The notes beneath the pieces were generated by a model that saw only the letters and a program-made list of their open reading frames with translations, was not told the DNA's origin and did not search any database. From Candidatus Calditenuaceae archaeon (GTDB lineage Archaea > Thermoproteota > Nitrososphaeria_A > Caldarchaeales > Calditenuaceae): a DNA stretch of 64,000 nucleotides. Shown here piece by piece: positions 16,193 through 30,647 of the stretch (position 1 is the first letter of the stretch; every line of letters starts with the position of its first letter). Position numbers and translations under genes: made by a program. The stretch covers positions 157,561 through 221,560 of the forward strand of contig JANXDI010000029.1 in NCBI GenBank assembly GCA_025059595.1, read 5' to 3'.

Positions 16193-16232
16193 CGGCGTCT
16201 CCTTTTTTCAGGTATTTATTGAGGGTGGGTAG

Positions 16233-16748
16233 TTGCAAGTAGGCGTGGCTGAGAGGACTTTCAAGTTTCTTGTGGAGGGCGGCAAAGCGACTGCTGGGCC
16301 TCCGATAGGCCCCCTAATGACGCCGCTGGGCATAAACGTCTTGCAGCTTATCGAAGAGATTAACCAGAAGACCGCAGAGTTCAGGGGCATGCACGTGAAT
16401 GTCATAGTTAGCGTGGATACAGAGTCCAAGGCTTTCAGAGTTGAAGTAGGTGTGCCGAGCACGGTGGCCCTCATTTCTAGGGAGGTTGGTCTAGAGAAGG
16501 GGTCGGGGTCTGCTGGTAAAGAGGCTGTAGGAGACCTCTCGCTGGAGGGGCTTCTCAAGATCGCTAAGTTGAAGACTGAGCGGTTGAGAGCTAAGTCTTT
16601 AAAGGCGGCGGTGCTCTCCGTCGCTGGAACATGTGTGAGCATGGGCGTGACGATAGCCGGTAAGAATCCGAAAGAGTTTATCAAGGAGGTTAGAGGCGGG
16701 AAATATGACGACCTGTTTGCCGAGGCTACTTCTTCCTCTCAGGCCTGA
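16233..16748 (+). CDS. rpl11: 50S ribosomal protein L11
   Basis: 'FLVEGGKATAGPPIGPLMTPLGINV' is the L11 N-terminal signature. True start may be GTG 16245 (TATA 'gtatttatt' at 16212-16220). Confidence 0.9.
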   Translation: MQVGVAERTFKFLVEGGKATAGPPIGPLMTPLGINVLQLIEEINQKTAEFRGMHVNVIVSVDTESKAFRVEVGVPSTVALISREVGLEKGSGSAGKEAVGDLSLEGLLKIAKLKTERLRAKSLKAAVLSVAGTCVSMGVTIAGKNPKEFIKEVRGGKYDDLFAEATSSSQA

Positions 16749-17425: not shown

Positions 17426-17433
17426 TTTATAAT
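17426..17433 (-). promoter_or_regulatory. TATA box (attataaa on the minus strand) about 35 nt upstream of the rpl1 ATG at 17391
   Basis: Supports rpl1 having its own promoter and Met16 being the start. Confidence 0.3.
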
Positions 17434-17459
17434 CATTTGAGGGTTGTGTTTGTTTTGGC

Positions 17460-18170
17460 CTAGATTTTGAGAAGTATTTCCGGGTCCCTGCTAGAGCGGA
17501 TCTTTTCTCCCTCTCCCTCTTGGAGCCAAGTCATCCAGCATAGTTCGATAGGCCTCACGCCGGCCTCGTGGGCTATACTTGTTGCCTCCTCAATAAACTC
17601 CAAATCTCCCCTCACTGGGCTGAAGCCGCACTCGGTAAGCATTTTGTTTAGCACACGCTTCACGACTCTGTCGGGCATAACAGTATCGACTCCACCCATC
17701 ATCCTTAGATACTGGTAAGTCACGAGCCCTACGCCTTTTATCGAGCCTATAGGGTTGAGCCTCCATTTTTGGAGGACTGATTTGGAGGCCCAGTTCCTGA
17801 GGGCCTCCCTGTCGCTCTTACCATAGTTCTTGAGGGCCGAGGCCACTTCTTTGGCCACGCTCCAGCACCTCTCGTTTCTCCATAGATTCAGAAAGTCCTT
17901 CACGTTTATCTGTGCAAGCTGCTGAAGAGAGGCAACGGCACCGCCCTCAACGAACCTCTCAGAGAAAAGCCTAACCCTTGGAACAACTAGGTCAAAATAG
18001 TTCAGGCCGCTCGACGTTAGAGCTGCGTCGACAACCATCAGCACCACGCTACCACCCCAGCGATCCGTCTTGAGACACCTGTCGCAGGCTGCTGTGAGGT
18101 GGGGGTTTGCGGCTACCGCTTCGAGAATCTTCTTTTTCAGCCTCTCCCTGTCTCCCACATCTAGATTCAT
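17460..18170 (-). CDS. HhH-GPD superfamily DNA glycosylase, possibly AGOG-type 8-oxoguanine glycosylase/lyase
   Basis: 236 aa. Helix-hairpin-helix plus Gly/Pro…Asp motif 'SIKGVGLVTYQYLRMMGGVDTVMPDRVVKRVL'. Lys in 'IKGVG' could be the lyase nucleophile. Confidence 0.45.
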   Translation of the reverse strand: MNLDVGDRERLKKKILEAVAANPHLTAACDRCLKTDRWGGSVVLMVVDAALTSSGLNYFDLVVPRVRLFSERFVEGGAVASLQQLAQINVKDFLNLWRNERCWSVAKEVASALKNYGKSDREALRNWASKSVLQKWRLNPIGSIKGVGLVTYQYLRMMGGVDTVMPDRVVKRVLNKMLTECGFSPVRGDLEFIEEATSIAHEAGVRPIELCWMTWLQEGEGEKIRSSRDPEILLKI

Positions 18171-18185
18171 GGTCTGTTCAGATGC

Positions 18186-18195
18186 AATTTAAATA
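18186..18195. promoter_or_regulatory. Near-palindromic TATA element (aatttaaata) in the 53-nt divergent spacer between the glycosylase gene and rpl10
   Basis: About 21 nt from the minus-strand ATG (18170) and about 29 nt from the plus-strand ATG (18224). Confidence 0.35.
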
Positions 18196-18223
18196 GTTGG
18201 CTGGCGTTGCTTTAATCAAAGTC

Positions 18224-22334: not shown

Positions 22335-22343
22335 ATTAAATGA
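22335..22343 (+). promoter_or_regulatory. TATA box (attaaatga) 23 nt upstream of ATG 22366
   Basis: Supports 22366 (MEKVEEV…) rather than 22261 as the start of the coiled-coil ORF. Confidence 0.3.
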
Positions 22344-22365
22344 GAGGAGAAGATGGATTTTGTGG

Positions 22366-22689
22366 ATGGAGAAGGTCGAGGAAGTTCTGAAGATGGTTGA
22401 GGAGCTGGAGGAGGGGTTGAAGACAGTCGAGGAGAAGATTGCTAAAGCTAGGTCGGATATGCAGAAGCAGGTTGACCAGTATATCGAGGAGATTAGGGTT
22501 CTTTATGCGAAGATCATGGAAGAGGAAAAGAGAGCAGTCTTGGAAGAGGCTGAAAAAAGTGCTCAGGAGGAGGCGGCGCGAATTCGAGGCGAGTATCTGC
22601 GCAGGGCCGAGGAAGTTAGGATGCGCTTCTCGTCGAGGTTGAACGAGCTTGCCGAATACCTCCTAAAGACACTTTTGCCTGAGGGGTGA
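22366..22689 (+). CDS. Small coiled-coil protein, possibly A-type ATPase subunit H (V-type G-like)
   Basis: 107 aa, almost all charged heptads (VEELEEGLKTVEEKIAKARSDMQKQVDQYIEE…). Lies directly upstream of, and in the same frame as, the subunit-C homologue. Confidence 0.35.
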   Translation: MEKVEEVLKMVEELEEGLKTVEEKIAKARSDMQKQVDQYIEEIRVLYAKIMEEEKRAVLEEAEKSAQEEAARIRGEYLRRAEEVRMRFSSRLNELAEYLLKTLLPEG

Positions 22690-23733
22690 GACAAAGCCCT
22701 GCAACCCTACACACTGGCGAAAATTTATGCCTGGCGAGGGTCGCTACTCTCGAAGACATTCATACAAGAACTAACCTCCTCGAGGAGCCTTACCGACTTC
22801 GTAGAAGCCCTTAAAGCAACCCCCTACTCCCACGAGGCACAGCAGATTACACCACCACTCAGCGCTCTGAAAATCGAGCACGCTTTGAGAAGGAGGCTTG
22901 TGAAGACACATCACAGGCTTATGACACTTGAGCACGGGGACCGAGTCTTGAGGGCCCTCTTTGACCGCTACATCAGCCGCGACTTTAAGATAATATTTCG
23001 CGGCATTCTTGCAGGACTGAAGGGTGAAGAGCTGAGCAGGCTTGTCGACCTTTACGCCGAGGAGCTACTTGGGCTGAGAGACGTTATTGCCCGGCTAATC
23101 GCGGCTGAGAGCCCTGATGATGCAGTTACCATCATCAGAGGTTACGCGACGGTCGACCCTTCAATTCCTATATTTGAAAAGACCCAGGACCCGGCAGCTT
23201 TGGAGGTTGAAATAGACAGATGGTTTATGCATGGCGTCCTAAGGGCTCTAAGGAGAGCACCCCGGACTCAGCGGCAAAATCTCAGAAGCCTGTTGGAGCC
23301 GATTTACTTGAAGTTTATTTTGACATCAGTTTTGAGGGGGAAGATTTGGAGGCTTCAGCCGCGGGATATTTGGGGAGTGGTGGAGGGGTTGGTTGAAGAG
23401 CCTCTTAAGTCGCTAATCTCCGTAGCAATCGAGGCAGACGATATTGAGAGTTTGAGGAGGGCGCTTTCTGTCATGCCTAAAGGAAGTCTGCCTCCACTCG
23501 GAGATGCTTCCACTCTGGCGAGCTTAGTAGCTTCCCTTGAGAGGGGGTTTAGGGAGATGCTTGTTTTTAGGGCCCGAAGAAGTTTTCTAAGACCTTTTGA
23601 CGAGCCGTCTCTCCCGATAGCCATGGTTCTTCTCCTCGAGGAGGAGGTAGCCCAGCTTGTCGCGGTTGCGGCAGGTATAGAACAGAAGGTTGACACAAAC
23701 ATTCTCATAGAAAGCTTGATTCCACTGACTTAG
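22690..23733 (+). CDS. atpC: A/V-type ATP synthase subunit C (V0 'd' family); conserved N-terminus lies upstream of the first ATG/GTG/TTG
   Basis: Frame 1 reads without a stop from the TGA at 22687. The N-terminal and following region (including RRRLVKTHHRLMTL) resembles archaeal AhaC; full translation in the matching finding. No canonical start occurs before TTG 22885. Confidence 0.6.
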   Translation, partial: DKALQPYTLAKIYAWRGSLLSKTFIQELTSSRSLTDFVEALKATPYSHEAQQITPPLSALKIEHALRRRLVKTHHRLMTLEHGDRVLRALFDRYISRDFKIIFRGILAGLKGEELSRLVDLYAEELLGLRDVIARLIAAESPDDAVTIIRGYATVDPSIPIFEKTQDPAALEVEIDRWFMHGVLRALRRAPRTQRQNLRSLLEPIYLKFILTSVLRGKIWRLQPRDIWGVVEGLVEEPLKSLISVAIEADDIESLRRALSVMPKGSLPPLGDASTLASLVASLERGFREMLVFRARRSFLRPFDEPSLPIAMVLLLEEEVAQLVAVAAGIEQKVDTNILIESLIPLT

Positions 23734-27020: not shown

Positions 27021-27094
27021 TAACTATTCACCCTAATTCCCACTTTCTCACGTATTCCCTGTGAAGTCGGTATTTAAATGATACCAAAGGAGTC

Positions 27095-27997
27095 ATGATT
27101 ATTTACTCTGTGAATCAGGAGGTAAGTATGCTTTCTGGCGTTCGAGAGACTGGTAGGGAGTGGGTTGCCTCTGTCATCCCTCCTCGAAGGGCTGGCTCGA
27201 GGAAGGGTGAGAATGGCGTCGTCTTGGTGATTGGCGGAAGCCGCCTTTATCATGGCGCGCCTTTCTTGACCGCGATGGCCTCGATGAGGTCGGGCGTCGA
27301 CCTCGTTTATTTGTTTGTGCCGGAGAAGGTTACGGCTCCTGTGAGGGCCTTATCCCCGAGCCTTATAGTTTATCCCTTGTCAGATGTTAAGCTGACTCGG
27401 CGGATAAGTGAGCAGATAGTCAAGAACGCCCCGCAGGCTGACACAGCGGCTATCGGCCCGGGGCTCGCCGTCGCAAACGAAGCCGCGTTGAAGAGGCTGC
27501 TTCAAGGCCTCTTAAGTAGGGGGTTAAGCCTTGTCCTCGACGCTTCGGCTCTCCAGCCCTACATTTTAGATACTGTCGGAGGAAAGGATGTGGTCTTAAC
27601 GCCTCACGCGGGCGAGTTCGCGAGGCTTTTTGGAAGGCCCCCCAGCGACCAGCTTGACGAGAGGTGCCGCTCTGCCATGGAGATGGCTGAGAAGCATGGC
27701 GTGACGATTTTATTGAAGGGCCAAGTTGATGTGATAACCAACGGGTCTGAAGTGTTCGTGAATAGAACTGGGACATGCGCCATGACGGTTGGAGGGACTG
27801 GAGATGTCCTAACTGGGCTGGTTGCGGGTCTGAGGGCGAAGAAGATGAAGGCTATAGAGGCTGCGGCGGCGGCCGCATTTATCAACGGTCTGTGTGGGGA
27901 GTTGGCCGCTGAGGAGCTTGGTCTTCATATACTTCCCACGGACCTAATCGACCTTATTCCACGCGTTATGAAGGAATTTGACAGAGTTGTTACTTAG
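27095..27997 (+). CDS. nnrD: ADP-dependent NAD(P)H-hydrate dehydratase (YjeF C-terminal domain)
   Basis: '[36 protein letters not shown]' and '[13 protein letters not shown]' motifs. Start may be Met12 (27128). Confidence 0.8.
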
Positions 27998-30030
27998 AGC
28001 CCTTGCCGCATCATTTTCTCCAGCTCATCCAGGCTTGTGGTTGGGAGTAAGCATTTGAACTCTCTACAGAAATAATATGTTGTCTCTCCCCTCATGGCCT
28101 CCTTCCCCTCCCAGAGGCTCTGAAGAGAATCAGACCTTCCCGCTGAGACCACGACGTATGGCTCGTAAATCTTCGAGGCGAGTCTACAGAGCTCAGGCCA
28201 AGGTTCACCTGAGGGAGCAACCACGAGTTGGCCACCCTTTCCGAGAACGAGCGGTAAAGCCGATATGAGAGATATATGACTCAAAGGGTCATATTGAATC
28301 GCTTGCCAAGCCCTCCTACAGGCGTCCCTCGACGTTTGGAGATACCTCTCTTCACCGGTCAACAGGTAGAGCCTAGATAGTAGCTGAACTGAGGCAGAGT
28401 AACCACTGGGATAGGAGTGGTCTTCAATCGTCATGGGCCGGACAGGAGTGTCGGAGTCGGGGGGCGTGTCGTAGAATCCGCCGGATTTCGAGGCGAATAA
28501 TTCGAGAATATCTGAGGCGAGACTTAACGCAGAGTCGAAATACTTTGTCTCTCCGCACCACTCATAAAGGTCCAAGAGCCCGCAGCCCAGAAGCGAGTAA
28601 TCTTCTAGAAGCCCCCCAGCCTCTGAAGGCCCATCCCTCCAATACCTTCTGAGCGAGCCCGGAGAATAGAGCTTCTTCAAAATGAAGTCTGCCACCCCCT
28701 TCGCCTCACTCATCAAGGCCCGGTCGTGGAGGATTGTAGCGGCATACGAGAGCCCACTTATCAATAGGCCGTTCCAGGAGACGATGACCTTGTCGTCAGC
28801 CTCAGGCTTCTGCTTCCCCGCTCTGATTTCCTTCAGCTTCAGGCTGACATGGTTAAGAGCCTCAATTAAGCTCATTCCAAGTGTATCGGCAAGTCTCTCG
28901 GGCTGGGCGGGGAGGCGAACTATGTTTAGGCCGCCCTCAAAGTTGCCTATCGGGCTGCATCCGAGAAGCCTCGCAACATCCTCCCCGAGTTCGGAGACAA
29001 TCTCATTCCAGCCATACAGGTAAAATCCTCCCTCAACACCTCCGCTCTCCGCGCTGAGCGAAGAGTAGCAACCCCCGTTGGGAGACTTAAGCTCAGAGAT
29101 TATCCAGCGCGAAGTATCCTCCAAAACGAGCCGGAATAATGGGTCTCTTGTCACCACCCAGGCCTCGGCGTAGAGCCTGACTAGCATCGCGTTGTCGTAA
29201 AGCATCTTCTCAAAGTGGGGGACAGACCAAGTGCTATCGACAGCATATCTGTGGAAGCCTCCGCCGGCGTGGTCGTATATTCCTCCAAGAAAAATCGATT
29301 TTAGTGTCTTCTCAACCATCCGGAGAGCGAGGCTCGGGCCTTGCAACTTCCAGTAACGTAGAAGAAACAGATATAGGCTCGGCATCGGGAATTTAGGGGC
29401 GCCTTTAACTCCTCCGAATTCCTCATCGAATGCTAGAACCAGCTGCTCATAGGCGTCACTCATCACATCGTAACTGAAATCCACCTCACCTTCACTCTTA
29501 ATCGCTAAGGACTTAATGATGGCCTCAAAGAGGCTGCTACCGCTATTCAGCACCTCCTCTCTCCTTTTCTCCCAGGCATCCTTCACCGCTAAGAGAACAT
29601 CCTTGAAGCTTGGCAGGTTTTGGCGGGGCTCGGGTGGGAAATAAGTGCCGCCGAAGAAGGGCTTCAAGTCCGGTGTGAGGAAGACCGTGAGAGGCCATCC
29701 TCCTTGACCAGTCATCAAAATCACAGCCCTCATGTAGATGCTGTCGATGTCTGGCCTCTCCTCCCTATCCACCTTCACAGATACAAAGTGCCTGTTCAAA
29801 ATGTCGCTGATGACTCTGCTCTTAAACGTCTCTCTCTGCATCACGTGACACCAGTGACACGACAAATATCCGATGCTGAGCATTATTGGCTTGTCCTCCT
29901 CCCTCGCCTTTCTGAACGCCTCCTCGCCCCAAGGATACCAATCAACAGGGTCATCTGCGTGAAGTCTGAGATACGGACTCTTACTCGCCGCCAGCCTGTT
30001 TAAGCCACTACGGGGAGAGTCTCGAGACAT
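27994..30030 (-). CDS. Thioredoxin-domain protein, DUF255/YyaL family (Trx + six-hairpin glycosidase-like domain)
   Basis: '[52 protein letters not shown]' is the DUF255 N-terminal signature. Start set at MSRDSP…. The track's 48-aa upstream extension is unsupported. Confidence 0.75.
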
Positions 30031-30098
30031 GCTGCCTGGTCTAGAGTTGTGATAACTTATTAAACTCTCCAGAGCAGAATAATCCCGGGTAGCTCCCG

Positions 30099-30647
30099 AT
30101 GACTGAGATTCACGGCTACGTTTCCAGCATGAAGCCGAAGATAGCTCGGAAGACAATTGTTCTACAAATCTCAATCTCGACGCTCGGGGGCGAGGGCTTT
30201 GAGGCGCTTGTTCACGACCCCCCGGACTGGTTGGATTTCGGGTCCAGAGTAACCTGTAGCCTCGAGCGAATACGTGAGAGAGAGGGGGAGATTTGCGTCG
30301 CAGACGACTTGAAGCCGTCGACCATGCTTCCCGACACGGTTCATGTTGAGCTCTTGGTCGAGTCGGTAAGAGAGACGCCAGACGGCCATGTCATGCTGGA
30401 GGGTAGGAGGGAAGACGGAGGCCTCTTCAGCTACCTGCTGAAGCCAGAGAACGCGAACACTACTGGGGTTAGTCCGCCTTACCGCGCTGTTGCAATAAAG
30501 ACCCACCAGAGAGGAATCGACCGGGTGGTGGCCGTCCTTCCGCTCAAAAACTACCAAATATTGAAAAGGACAAAAGAGTTCATCCTCAGGCTGAAAGAAA
30601 ATGAAGAAAAAAGGCCCGAGCTAGACTTTCTTCAAGAAGCCCCATGA
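30099..30647 (+). CDS. Hypothetical protein
   Basis: 182-aa ORF with protein-like composition in a divergent spacer. Preferred over the fully overlapping antisense ORF 30171..30557. No recognisable motifs. Confidence 0.3.

Follow-up and report, generated by a model that had tools for sequence, protein, structure and literature searches.

Subunit C couples A1 to Ao in all A/V-ATPases. In these enzymes, subunits H/G belong to the stator, with the C-terminus at the top of A3B3, and subunit C, or its eukaryotic counterpart d, caps the c-ring on the rotor. As for unusual prokaryotic start codons, AUU in infC is the classic example of a regulated near-cognate start. Starts of the CUG/AUU class turn up now and then in annotations of bacterial genomes. 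In E. coli, CUG initiates at 1–2% of the level of AUG (bioRxiv 10.1101/063800). Near-cognate codons made up about 30% of the putative alternative initiation sites found by ribosome profiling in Haloferax (PMC7261190), and in vitro the factor aIF1 discriminates against non-AUG codons (PMC4705826). Switches of a start codon from UUG to CUG were reconstructed very rarely (1 of 2,468), and stronger Shine-Dalgarno (SD) sequences were found to be associated with non-AUG starts (PMC5622118). No experimentally validated native CUG start in archaea was found in the literature searched.

A candidate for such a start is considered here. It was found in a stretch of archaeal DNA of 64,000 nucleotides, the whole of which is called the window below. 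In our opinion, the gene of an A/V-ATPase subunit C in this window most likely begins at the rare near-cognate codon CTG 22699, as the second cistron of a bicistronic H–C mRNA (probability of about 0.75, judged from sequence comparisons).

Reading frame and family membership of the C gene

The frame of the C gene, as read from the sequence, is open from TGA 22687–22689 through TAG 23731–23733, i.e., over 347 codons. Its earliest in-frame ATG, GTG or TTG is TTG 22885, 65 codons past the TGA, and CTG and ATT codons are found in frame at 22699 and 22723, respectively. A previous sequence-only reading had described this interval in the same way, together with a 107-aa ORF (ATG 22366 to TGA 22689) preceding the C gene in the same frame and a TATA-like box at 22335, and all these observations were confirmed. 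The features of the locus are as follows:

22335..22341, plus strand: TATA-like box ATTAAAT, with its centre about 28 nt upstream of ATG 22366
22366..22689, plus strand: 107-aa coiled-coil ORF from ATG to TGA, probable peripheral-stalk subunit H (G-like), first cistron; weak match to PF16999
22681..22689, plus strand: Shine-Dalgarno-like GAGGGGTGA across the final codons and the TGA of the 107-aa ORF, 9 nt before CTG
22687..22689, plus strand: TGA stop of the 107-aa ORF, in frame with the C gene (from the sequence and the orthologues)
22690..22698, plus strand: 9-nt non-coding spacer GACAAAGCC, variable among orthologues
22699..22701, plus strand: CTG, proposed near-cognate start of the C gene, aligned with the orthologous starts
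22699..23733, plus strand: coding sequence of A/V-type ATPase subunit C (eukaryotic d / AC39 family), 344 aa and TAG, from PF01992 and homologues
22723..22725, plus strand: ATT, start of GenBank MCS7146326.1 (336 aa), rejected because conserved residues are lost
22885..22887, plus strand: TTG, first canonical start (282-aa model), rejected on the Pfam score and orthologues

Codon 2 is separated from the in-frame TGA by just four codons, GAC AAA GCC CTG; no near-cognate codon other than CTG occurs among them or in the whole interval from the stop to the conserved P3, Y4, A7 and K8. Start-less leaders were surveyed in the 78 ORFs of the window that span 120 codons or more from stop to stop. The first canonical start lies at a median of 8 codons from the stop, and leaders longer than the 65 codons of the C gene occur in 5 of the 78. 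The test of a leader for protein homology was confined to the C gene, where homology was found. The leader of 27994–30390 on the minus strand presumably represents an over-extended ORF, judging by eye from the family to which we take it to belong. GTG 22686, another conceivable start of the C gene, overlaps the TGA and lies in a different frame, which closes after about 30 codons.

The 347-aa translation (22690–23730) was compared with the family PF01992 (vATP-synt_AC39), as had been proposed earlier. It matched profile positions 3–333 of 339 with 118.5 bits (E 5e-34), exceeding the cut-off of 29 bits with nearly full-length coverage, whereas the product of TTG 22885 covers positions 62–333 only and has 71.5 bits. 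Because of this gain in score and the coverage from position 3, the 65 extra residues are regarded as homologous C-subunit sequence and not a chance extension. The NCBIfam equivalog TIGR02923 (AhaC) also gave a full-length alignment (E 1.7e-13), but with 50.6 bits it did not reach its cut-off of 240.5. On these profile scores, the C protein is a divergent member of the family and not an AhaC equivalog by the NCBI criterion.

Thirteen C homologues were found, 11 of them with 52–58% identity, 329–348 aa in length and collinear from residue 1, so the N-terminal 65 residues are not missing from the orthologues. The closest relative with a TTG start is only 58% identical. Within codons 2–63, 23 columns, including P3, Y4, A7 and K8, are amino-acid-invariant across nine lineages, and synonymous codon variation occurs in all 23. 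The identity of the window protein to its orthologues is 56–74% in codons 2–63 against 44–58% overall. As these alignments indicate, the N-terminus of C is under protein-level selection, with constraint beginning at codons 3–4. The earlier claim that about 65 N-terminal residues must be translated is thus borne out by the Pfam gain and by this selection, and the model starting at TTG 22885 is wrong: it drops 62 conserved residues and 47 bits of the Pfam score and begins at a codon used as a start by no orthologue.

The upstream ORF and the layout of the locus

The 107-aa ORF aligned with profile positions 4–104 of 104 in PF16999 (V-ATPase_G_2) at E 0.0019 and 19.2 bits, the cut-off of 28 not being reached. 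The same family was matched at E ≤ 0.01 by seven of its eight orthologues (best 5e-05), more than for any other family. With PRK08404, the NCBIfam model for V-type subunit H, E was 0.021 and the score 15 bits, below the cut-off of 107. One of the orthologues is named 'vacuolar-type H+-ATPase subunit H' by JGI; for NCBI, the ORF encodes a hypothetical protein. A PDB profile search with the ORF gave generic coiled coils only (apolipoproteins, F-type subunit b), and a profile search of a set of 5.8 billion proteins gave close relatives only, including one with the JGI name subunit H. Summarizing these comparisons, it may be concluded that an H/G-like peripheral-stalk subunit of the A/V-ATPase is a plausible and the most likely identity of the ORF. 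The H/G-like label proposed earlier is plausible, but the scores remain below the family thresholds.

The pair sits beside ribosomal-protein and AlaRS genes. No ATPase subunits, including A/B-type ones, were detected among the 10 largest other ORFs of the window that were scanned or among the genes flanking the pair. The sequence-only reading had pointed out that only two ATPase-related genes are present, which is correct as an observation but not as an oddity, since the H–C pair without other ATPase subunits is, as far as genome comparison indicates, the normal conserved arrangement in Caldarchaeales, where the 107-aa ORF always adjoins the C gene. The layout in this order consists of a TATA-like box, the 107-aa H/G-like ORF with GGGTGA or GGGGTGTAG at its end, a spacer of 3–9 nt and the C start. 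In Nitrososphaerales, the same C gene is read from TTG or GTG and has no upstream ORF. The GenBank proteins are labelled as Calditenuaceae; Caldarchaeales correspond to Aigarchaeota.

The motif GGTTAAAT, GGTTATAT or GTTAAAA occurs at an equal distance from the start codon in seven orthologous loci. The usual archaeal spacing between TATA box and start served as a basis for placing the transcription start site, and because of the spacing of the TATA-like box to ATG 22366 the H–C transcript is predicted to be leaderless or nearly leaderless, beginning at about 22364–22366.

The CTG codon, its surroundings and rival explanations

In the alignment, CTG 22699 falls exactly on the start codon of every orthologue (about 20 lineages), be it TTG, ATG or GTG. 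The orthologous start is TTG in six lineages of Caldarchaeales and in six of Nitrososphaerales; within the former order, it is ATG in one clade (L015) and GTG in one, and GTG starts were recorded in L027, L032 and L035. Relatives whose spacer measures 9 nt also have an in-frame TGA, past which TTG is their sole candidate for a start. Four explanations of the missing start had been offered before, and the rare start codon is the only one that survived, being pinned to CTG 22699 by this alignment. Two calls of 331 and 329 aa (P0007 and P0008), considered as further non-canonical starts, have a normal TTG at the orthologous position in the DNA and proved to be gene-caller artefacts.

The CTG and the TGA are identical in four assemblies, namely the window, GCA_033581375.1 and two Logan assemblies (SRR15826899 and SRR15826900) built separately from two different sequencing runs. 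The four are 100% identical over 5–7 kb; the identical CTG is carried by L020, L021 and L022. The assemblies may sample one clonal population, and the change to CTG may be a recent, mildly deleterious one and not an adaptation. For this identical DNA, four N-termini are on record (344, 336, 277 and 270 aa), in addition to the 282-aa track model. GenBank MDW8072917.1, from the NCBI annotation of one metagenome-assembled genome (MAG), is the 344-aa product of CTG 22699; MCS7146326.1, from the other MAG, is the 336-aa product of ATT 22723; the Logan gene calls are of 277 and 270 aa. Only the 344-aa model fits the C family.

The predicted duplex of GAGGGGTGA with the assumed anti-SD GAUCACCUCCU has an energy of −11.0 kcal/mol, a value that ranks among the best 3% for random 25-mers of the window; with the same assumed anti-SD, TTG and ATG orthologues gave −8.1 to −8.6 kcal/mol. 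GAUCACCUCCU is the usual archaeal 16S 3' end, from which that of the host may differ; an Rfam scan of the window gave zero matches, and there is no 16S rRNA gene in the window. GGGTGA is invariant in five aligned orthologous sequences, and many other starts inside operons of the window are preceded, at 4–9 nt, by GGTGA-type motifs. The gap of 9 nt between SD and CTG belongs to the long end of this range and is shared by the TTG relatives.

The upstream stop is kept in all orthologues having the upstream ORF, as TGA or, in the L015 clade, as TAG. It shares the frame of C at spacers of 9 or 3 nt, but not at those of 7 nt (L013) and 8 nt (L014/L029). The spacers of orthologues (gtgactgcc, aactctccc, gcctccagc, gcctgcgcc, cacctcc, gctgggac and ggg) vary in sequence and length and for this reason are considered free of protein-level constraint. 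RNA folding of the 80-nt junction was no better than that of shuffled sequences (z = 0.21), and no significant structure was found in three relatives either.

The expression of the pair can be imagined as follows. Transcription driven by the TATA-like box, some 28 nt ahead of ATG 22366, would give a probably leaderless mRNA with the 107-aa H/G-like protein as the first cistron and subunit C, the rotor cap homologous to eukaryotic subunit d, as the second. Subunit C would be translated separately, from its own ribosome-binding site GAGGGGUGA within the end of the first gene, with 9 nt between this site and the start. This start is UUG, AUG or GUG in every relative, and a single T-to-C transition would have converted it into CUG 22699 in the present lineage. 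The initiator Met-tRNA would then act at the near-cognate CUG, yielding the normal 344-aa protein at a reduced rate, possibly helped by an SD pairing one base pair longer than in relatives and by local re-initiation of ribosomes terminating 9 nt upstream. The SD may compensate for CUG, as suggested by this one lineage. The C gene could also be a hypomorph, given the poor initiation from CUG where it was measured (1–2% of the AUG level in E. coli) and the in vitro bias of aIF1 against non-AUG codons. We are somewhat inclined to believe that this is a native functional CUG start in an archaeon, on the gene of an essential ATP-synthase subunit, which would be made workable by the lengthened SD (GAGGGGUGA against xGGGUGA in relatives) and the nearby upstream stop.

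A rather unlikely alternative is that most ribosomes initiating at CTG come straight from termination at TGA 22687 and not from fresh SD-directed 30S binding, so that a high local concentration of ribosomes offsets the weak codon and ties the output of C to that of H. This termination-reinitiation is favoured by the stop-to-start gap of 9 nt (3–9 nt in all Caldarchaeales relatives), by the overlap of the SD with the upstream stop codon, and by the products being subunits of one complex, a class of gene pairs enriched for coupling (PMC10666635). However, coupling efficiency in Haloferax and E. coli declines sharply as the gap widens and is close to nil around 20 nt, typical pairs overlapping by 4 or 1 nt (PMC10666635); 9 nt is an intermediate distance, and translation of C from TTG or GTG in Nitrososphaerales without an upstream ORF means that coupling is not required for the C family. 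It is decidedly unlikely that the T-to-C transition was a loss of the start codon, leaving little or no full-length C, as in a very recent pseudogene or hypomorph, or only the 282-aa product of TTG 22885. It is true that CTG is a non-standard start and that gene callers fall back downstream of it (282 aa in the track, 277 and 270 aa in Logan), and because the four assemblies resemble one population, a recent deleterious mutation could be locally fixed there. Nevertheless, the ORF is intact and keeps all invariant and nearly invariant family residues, including those in the 62 codons before TTG 22885; the homology search gave a single C-subunit family member from this organism, the loss of which should be strongly selected against; a truncated product would be devoid of the most conserved part of the protein; and the strong SD is correctly placed for CTG, with nothing comparable before TTG 22885.

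Initiation at ATT 22723, as in MCS7146326.1, is very unlikely, although ATT is an allowed table-11 initiator chosen by the NCBI pipeline for one MAG, and codons of its class have about the same low initiation level as CUG in E. coli (bioRxiv 10.1101/063800). With this start, the protein would lose Y4 and K8, which are invariant, and A7, which is nearly so; all three are maintained by selection at the protein level, while their codons vary synonymously. The ATT lies 33 nt from the SD with no SD-like motif of its own, and it is used by no orthologue and was replaced by CTG in NCBI's later annotation of identical DNA. It is highly improbable that the population really has TTG and that the C at 22699 arose in assembly or consensus calling or belongs to a minority allele. 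The source is metagenome-assembled genomes, and a one-base difference from a conserved TTG looks like an error, but the same base was found in four assemblies, the two Logan ones being independent, with no other difference over 5–7 kb; the sequencing error suggested earlier for the TGA is unlikely on the same grounds, and the stop of the relatives with the upstream ORF speaks against it as well. An extremely improbable explanation is programmed or leaky read-through or recoding of TGA 22687, which would supply the N-terminus of C within an H–C fusion of about 455 aa. The two ORFs do share a frame here, as they do in relatives whose spacer has 9 or 3 nt, but none of the relatives with the upstream ORF lacks the stop, the frame is broken by the 7- and 8-nt spacers, no spacer is conserved as protein, all relatives have a canonical start directly after it, and neither significant RNA structure around the stop nor Rfam matches in the window were found. 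Moreover, a four-residue tether could not occupy both stator and rotor sites and would lock the motor. The H–C fusion put forward by the sequence-only reading is thus unsupported as a conserved feature, and its other proposal, a recent nonsense mutation that split a fused gene, is refuted by the universality of the stop in relatives with the ORF and by spacers that vary and are partly out of frame.

Significance and comparison with known systems

In practical terms, the proposed initiation at CTG 22699 concerns a gene-model problem, i.e., conflicting N-termini for identical DNA. In biological terms, it is a clean candidate for CUG initiation, anchored by comparison with relatives, in a domain, the Archaea, whose starts other than AUG, GUG and UUG have hardly been examined. 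If true, it would be a natural experiment on how start-codon stringency relaxes in a eukaryote-like aIF1/aIF2 system with a bacterial-style SD. A weak C start codon, TTG or GTG, occurs in most sampled lineages of Nitrososphaerota, with ATG in one clade, which would fit a tuning of the single-copy rotor subunit below its stator partner. The reading as a stator–rotor fusion is removed, and no major question is opened.

The C protein resembles subunit C of the A/V-ATPases (AhaC/AtpC; eukaryotic V-ATPase subunit d; PF01992) in its full-length profile match, its length of 344 aa and its collinearity from residue 1, and differs from this family in its divergence (50.6 against 240.5 bits for AhaC) and in the CTG start. 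In contrast to A/V-ATPase operons, its gene does not stand with those of A/B/D/E/I/K and is paired only with the H/G-like ORF. That ORF is similar to subunit H and V-ATPase G (PF16999, PRK08404) in its size of about 105 aa, entirely coiled-coil nature, full-length G_2 alignment and ATPase gene neighbour, but it stays below the curated cut-offs and shows comparable weak matches to apolipoprotein, F-type subunit b and V-type subunit E, i.e., a generic coiled-coil similarity.

The pair shares with translationally coupled genes (Huber et al. 2019, 2023; PMC6728339, PMC10666635) adjacency, direction, products belonging to one complex, a very short gap and an SD in the end of the upstream gene. Unlike classic pairs with an overlap of 4 or 1 nt, it has a gap of 9 nt, a distance at which coupling is already weakened in the species tested. 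Like near-cognate prokaryotic starts of the CUG/AUU class, the CTG departs from AUG at one base only, the first, stands at a normal distance from an SD and corresponds in position to a canonical start of the relatives. It differs from bacterial cases in being archaeal, with initiation by aIF1/aIF2, and its use is deduced from comparison; as distinct from infC, there is no evidence of a regulatory role here. The proposed CTG start of the C gene is a rare case of a known phenomenon.

Reading frame and N-terminus of the subunit C gene

The frame of the A/V-ATPase subunit C gene is open from the TGA at 22687-22689 to the TAG at 23731-23733 (347 codons), and its first ATG, GTG or TTG is the TTG at 22885, 65 codons in. 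Ahead of the conserved sequence, near-cognate codons are limited to CTG 22699 and, deeper into the frame, ATT 22723. The upstream ORF, from ATG 22366 to TGA 22689, shares this frame, and the sequence-only reading had described the TGA, the start-less interval and the common frame accurately.

Features of the locus
22335-22341: TATA-like box ATTAAAT
22366-22689 (+): 107-aa ORF, putatively subunit H/G-like
22699-23733 (+): subunit C gene, proposed start CTG 22699

The 347-aa translation matched Pfam PF01992 (vATP-synt_AC39) over profile positions 3-333 of 339 with 118.5 bits, versus positions 62-333 only and 71.5 bits for the 282-aa model beginning at the TTG, so the 65 extra residues are homologous C-subunit sequence. 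A homology search with the C protein found 13 proteins, namely 11 orthologues at 52-58% identity and two more distant matches at 45% and 33%; GenBank MCS7146326.1 (labelled Aigarchaeota/Calditenuaceae) is a 100% identical match of 336 aa. The orthologues are mostly 343-350 aa long, with the N-terminus M-Q-P-Y-L-L-A-K-A-Y-A-W, collinear with L-Q-P-Y-T-L-A-K-I-Y-A-W in the window.

Across nine lineages compared over codons 2-63, the amino acid is invariant in 23 columns, including P3, Y4, A7, K8, Y10 and A11, and each of these columns shows synonymous codon variation. The window protein retains every invariant and nearly invariant residue of this region, where its identity to orthologues is 56-74% versus 44-58% overall. 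This selection, together with the profile match, bears out the earlier view that the N-terminal ~65 residues are translated. The 9 nt between the stop and CTG vary in length and sequence among relatives and are not protein-coding; since selection is seen from the region of codons 3-4, translation must start at or before codon 2-3, and the candidates there after the in-frame TGA are GAC, AAA, GCC and CTG only. A start at ATT 22723 would lose Y4, A7 and K8 and is without a ribosome-binding motif, and one at TTG 22885 would lose the best-conserved part of the protein.

Start codons and gene neighbourhood in relatives

DNA of the orthologues was taken from NCBI, ENA, JGI and Logan assemblies and from one scan each of genome and metagenome collections. 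In Caldarchaeales, the upstream ORF ends in GGGTGA, or GGGGTGTAG in one clade, and the spacer to the C start is 9 nt in most lineages, 7 nt in locus L013, 8 nt in L014 and L029 and 3 nt in the L015 clade. The C gene starts with TTG in six distinct lineages of this order, with ATG in the L015 clade and with GTG in L027. In Nitrososphaerales the upstream ORF is absent, the C gene has its own TATA box, and the start is TTG in six lineages and GTG in two. In a base-for-base alignment, CTG 22699 falls on these start codons (window GGGTGA-gacaaagcc-CTGCAACCC versus GGGTGA-gtgactgcc-TTGCAGCCG), in agreement with the rare start codon proposed earlier. CTG was not found at the orthologous start in any other lineage compared. 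Two orthologues called short, P0007 and P0008, were considered as further start-less genes, but their DNA carries TTG at the start, and these calls are thus gene-caller artefacts.

The Nitrososphaerales loci (L016-L019, L030-L035) have the C gene alone behind a TTTAAA TATA box, with the start TTG AGC AAG AGC... or GTG. A weak start codon is present on the C gene in most sampled lineages of the phylum, ATG being found only in one Caldarchaeales clade. The GGG TGA end of the H-like ORF (22684-22689) is invariant across the aligned Calditenuaceae relatives (junctions of loci L001-L037), and GGGGTG is retained ahead of a TAG in the L015 clade. From these alignments, the C-terminal glycine and stop, doubling as the Shine-Dalgarno (SD) element of the next gene, look like a case of dual constraint.

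All Caldarchaeales loci compared share one gene neighbourhood.

Gene order around the subunit C gene in Caldarchaeales
1. ribosomal protein L10
2. AlaRS, opposite strand
3. L12, opposite strand
4. 107-110-aa ORF (H/G-like)
5. C subunit
6. acylphosphatase, opposite strand
7. roughly 240-aa ORF
8. Pelota
9. DnaG

As noted before, only two ATPase-related genes are seen here: none of ten large ORFs tested elsewhere in the window encodes an ATPase subunit (hydantoinases A and B, SufBD, SecY, ABC solute-binding protein, CTP synthase, topoisomerase VI B, EF-Tu-like GTPase, Mrp/Nuo antiporter-like subunit and FAD oxidoreductase). The isolated H-C pair is a conserved state of this archaeal order and not a peculiarity of this genome.

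The H/G-like label of the upstream ORF is reasonable as a family likeness, with scores below threshold. The ORF aligned with PF16999 over its full length (E 0.0019), and 7 of 8 orthologues matched this family at E<=0.01 (best 5e-05), no other family being matched as often. NCBIfam gave weak matches to V-type subunit H, V-type subunit E and F-type subunit b, one orthologue was named subunit H by JGI, and a PDB profile search returned generic coiled coils only.

Elsewhere in the window, ARAGORN predicted a 95-nt tRNA-Phe (GAA), possibly intron-containing, at 16536-16630(+); a Rfam gathering-threshold scan of the whole window reported no tRNA, including at this site. The mechanical ORFs 16208-16684(-) and 16233-16748(+) both overlap the site.

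Promoter, Shine-Dalgarno element and rival readings

The TATA-like box, already placed at 22335 in the sequence-only reading, is centred ~28 nt before the upstream start codon, and relatives have one at the same fixed distance, mostly GGTTAAAT or GGTTATAT. Placing the transcription start at the distance from the TATA box that is usual in Archaea predicts an mRNA with no leader or hardly any, so that the first cistron would need its ATG. At several other genes (17430-18200, 27060-27095), among them 17460-18170(-) and 27095-27997(+), a ATTTAAAT or TATTTAAAT box precedes the start codon by ~22-28 nt. The motifs suggest that first cistrons in this genome are commonly leaderless, operon-internal genes having GGTGA-type SD motifs instead.

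The SD-like element of the C gene is built into the end of the upstream ORF. The 16S 3' end was assumed to be the common archaeal GAUCACCUCCU, as the window holds no rRNA gene to read it from; with this anti-SD, the predicted duplex of the window GAGGGGUGA is -11.0 kcal/mol, a value within the top 3% for random 25-mers, versus -8.1 to -8.6 kcal/mol in TTG/ATG relatives. GGTGA-type motifs stand 4-9 nt before many operon-internal starts (e.g. 46204, 47106, 48087, 50248(-), 25854(-)), so initiation inside operons from an SD is the normal case in this organism. A pair of hydantoinase/oxoprolinase genes next to each other lies at 50248-54099(-); the products are 695 aa (A) and 585 aa (B), and gene B has a strong GAGGTGA SD 6 nt before its ATG. 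Folding of the junction RNA gave no significant secondary structure (z = 0.21).

In our opinion, CTG 22699 is probably the functional start of the C gene (about three chances in four). Initiator Met-tRNA would start the subunit at this near-cognate CUG behind a strong SD, and ribosomes terminating 9 nt upstream may add to initiation. Termination-reinitiation from that stop is possible, but in Haloferax and E. coli it drops sharply as the distance grows, and almost none is left at ~20 nt (PMC10666635). As the leading alternative, the change could be a recent mutation that weakened or destroyed the start in one population, and the window and the other CTG assemblies may sample just one. The sequencing error suggested earlier is very unlikely as a random event: the contigs L020 (GCA_033581375.1), L021 (SRR15826899) and L022 (SRR15826900) show 100% identity with the window over 7,035, 6,834 and 5,215 nt, and all carry GGGGTGAGACAAAGCCCTGCAACCC.

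The suggested H-C fusion across TGA 22687 does not hold, nor does a recent nonsense mutation splitting a fused gene, because no relative having the upstream ORF lacks the stop codon. Against fusion, moreover, the spacer puts the two genes out of frame in two lineages, and the C gene of every relative has a canonical start of its own; H and C share a frame here because the spacer is 9 nt. In A/V-ATPases, H/G belongs to the peripheral stator stalk, its C-terminus at the top of A3B3, and C/d is the rotor subunit that caps the c-ring; tying H to C by four residues would be sterically and mechanically incompatible with rotation.

Conflicting annotations and known start codons

The 90%-identity cluster of the window C protein has four other calls on identical protein sequence: 344 aa (MDW8072917.1, GCA_033581375.1) and 277, 270 and 177 aa (Logan); L020, L021 and L022 are the contigs of the 344-, 277- and 270-aa calls. 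The NCBI pipeline itself chose CTG in MDW8072917.1 and ATT 22723 in MCS7146326.1. Byte-identical DNA thus has at least four public N-termini (344 aa from CTG, 336 aa from ATT, and the 277- and 270-aa Logan calls), the 282-aa track model being a fifth. Another start deserves mention: the 726-aa TTG ORF at 27994-30390(-) has 72 more open codons upstream, and its product is presumably thioredoxin-domain/YyaL-like. Read by eye, the N-terminus looks over-extended, with the family-typical motif only ~60 residues in, after an internal ATG, and translation probably begins further downstream than at the mechanical start.

Archaea make routine use of GUG and UUG as start codons (PMC4705826). CUG is occasionally annotated in bacteria and gives 1-2% of AUG initiation in E. 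coli (bioRxiv 10.1101/063800). Reconstructed UUG-to-CUG start switches are very rare (1/2,468), and weak starts are associated with strong SDs (PMC5622118); the extra SD base pair found here would fit this association as a single observation in one lineage. In Haloferax ribosome profiling, near-cognate codons made up ~30% of the putative alternative initiation sites, and the study set them aside (PMC7261190). Considering the rarity of known CUG starts and these precedents, the locus may be regarded as a new, well-anchored case of a near-cognate start codon, a candidate from a domain, Archaea, where few have been examined.
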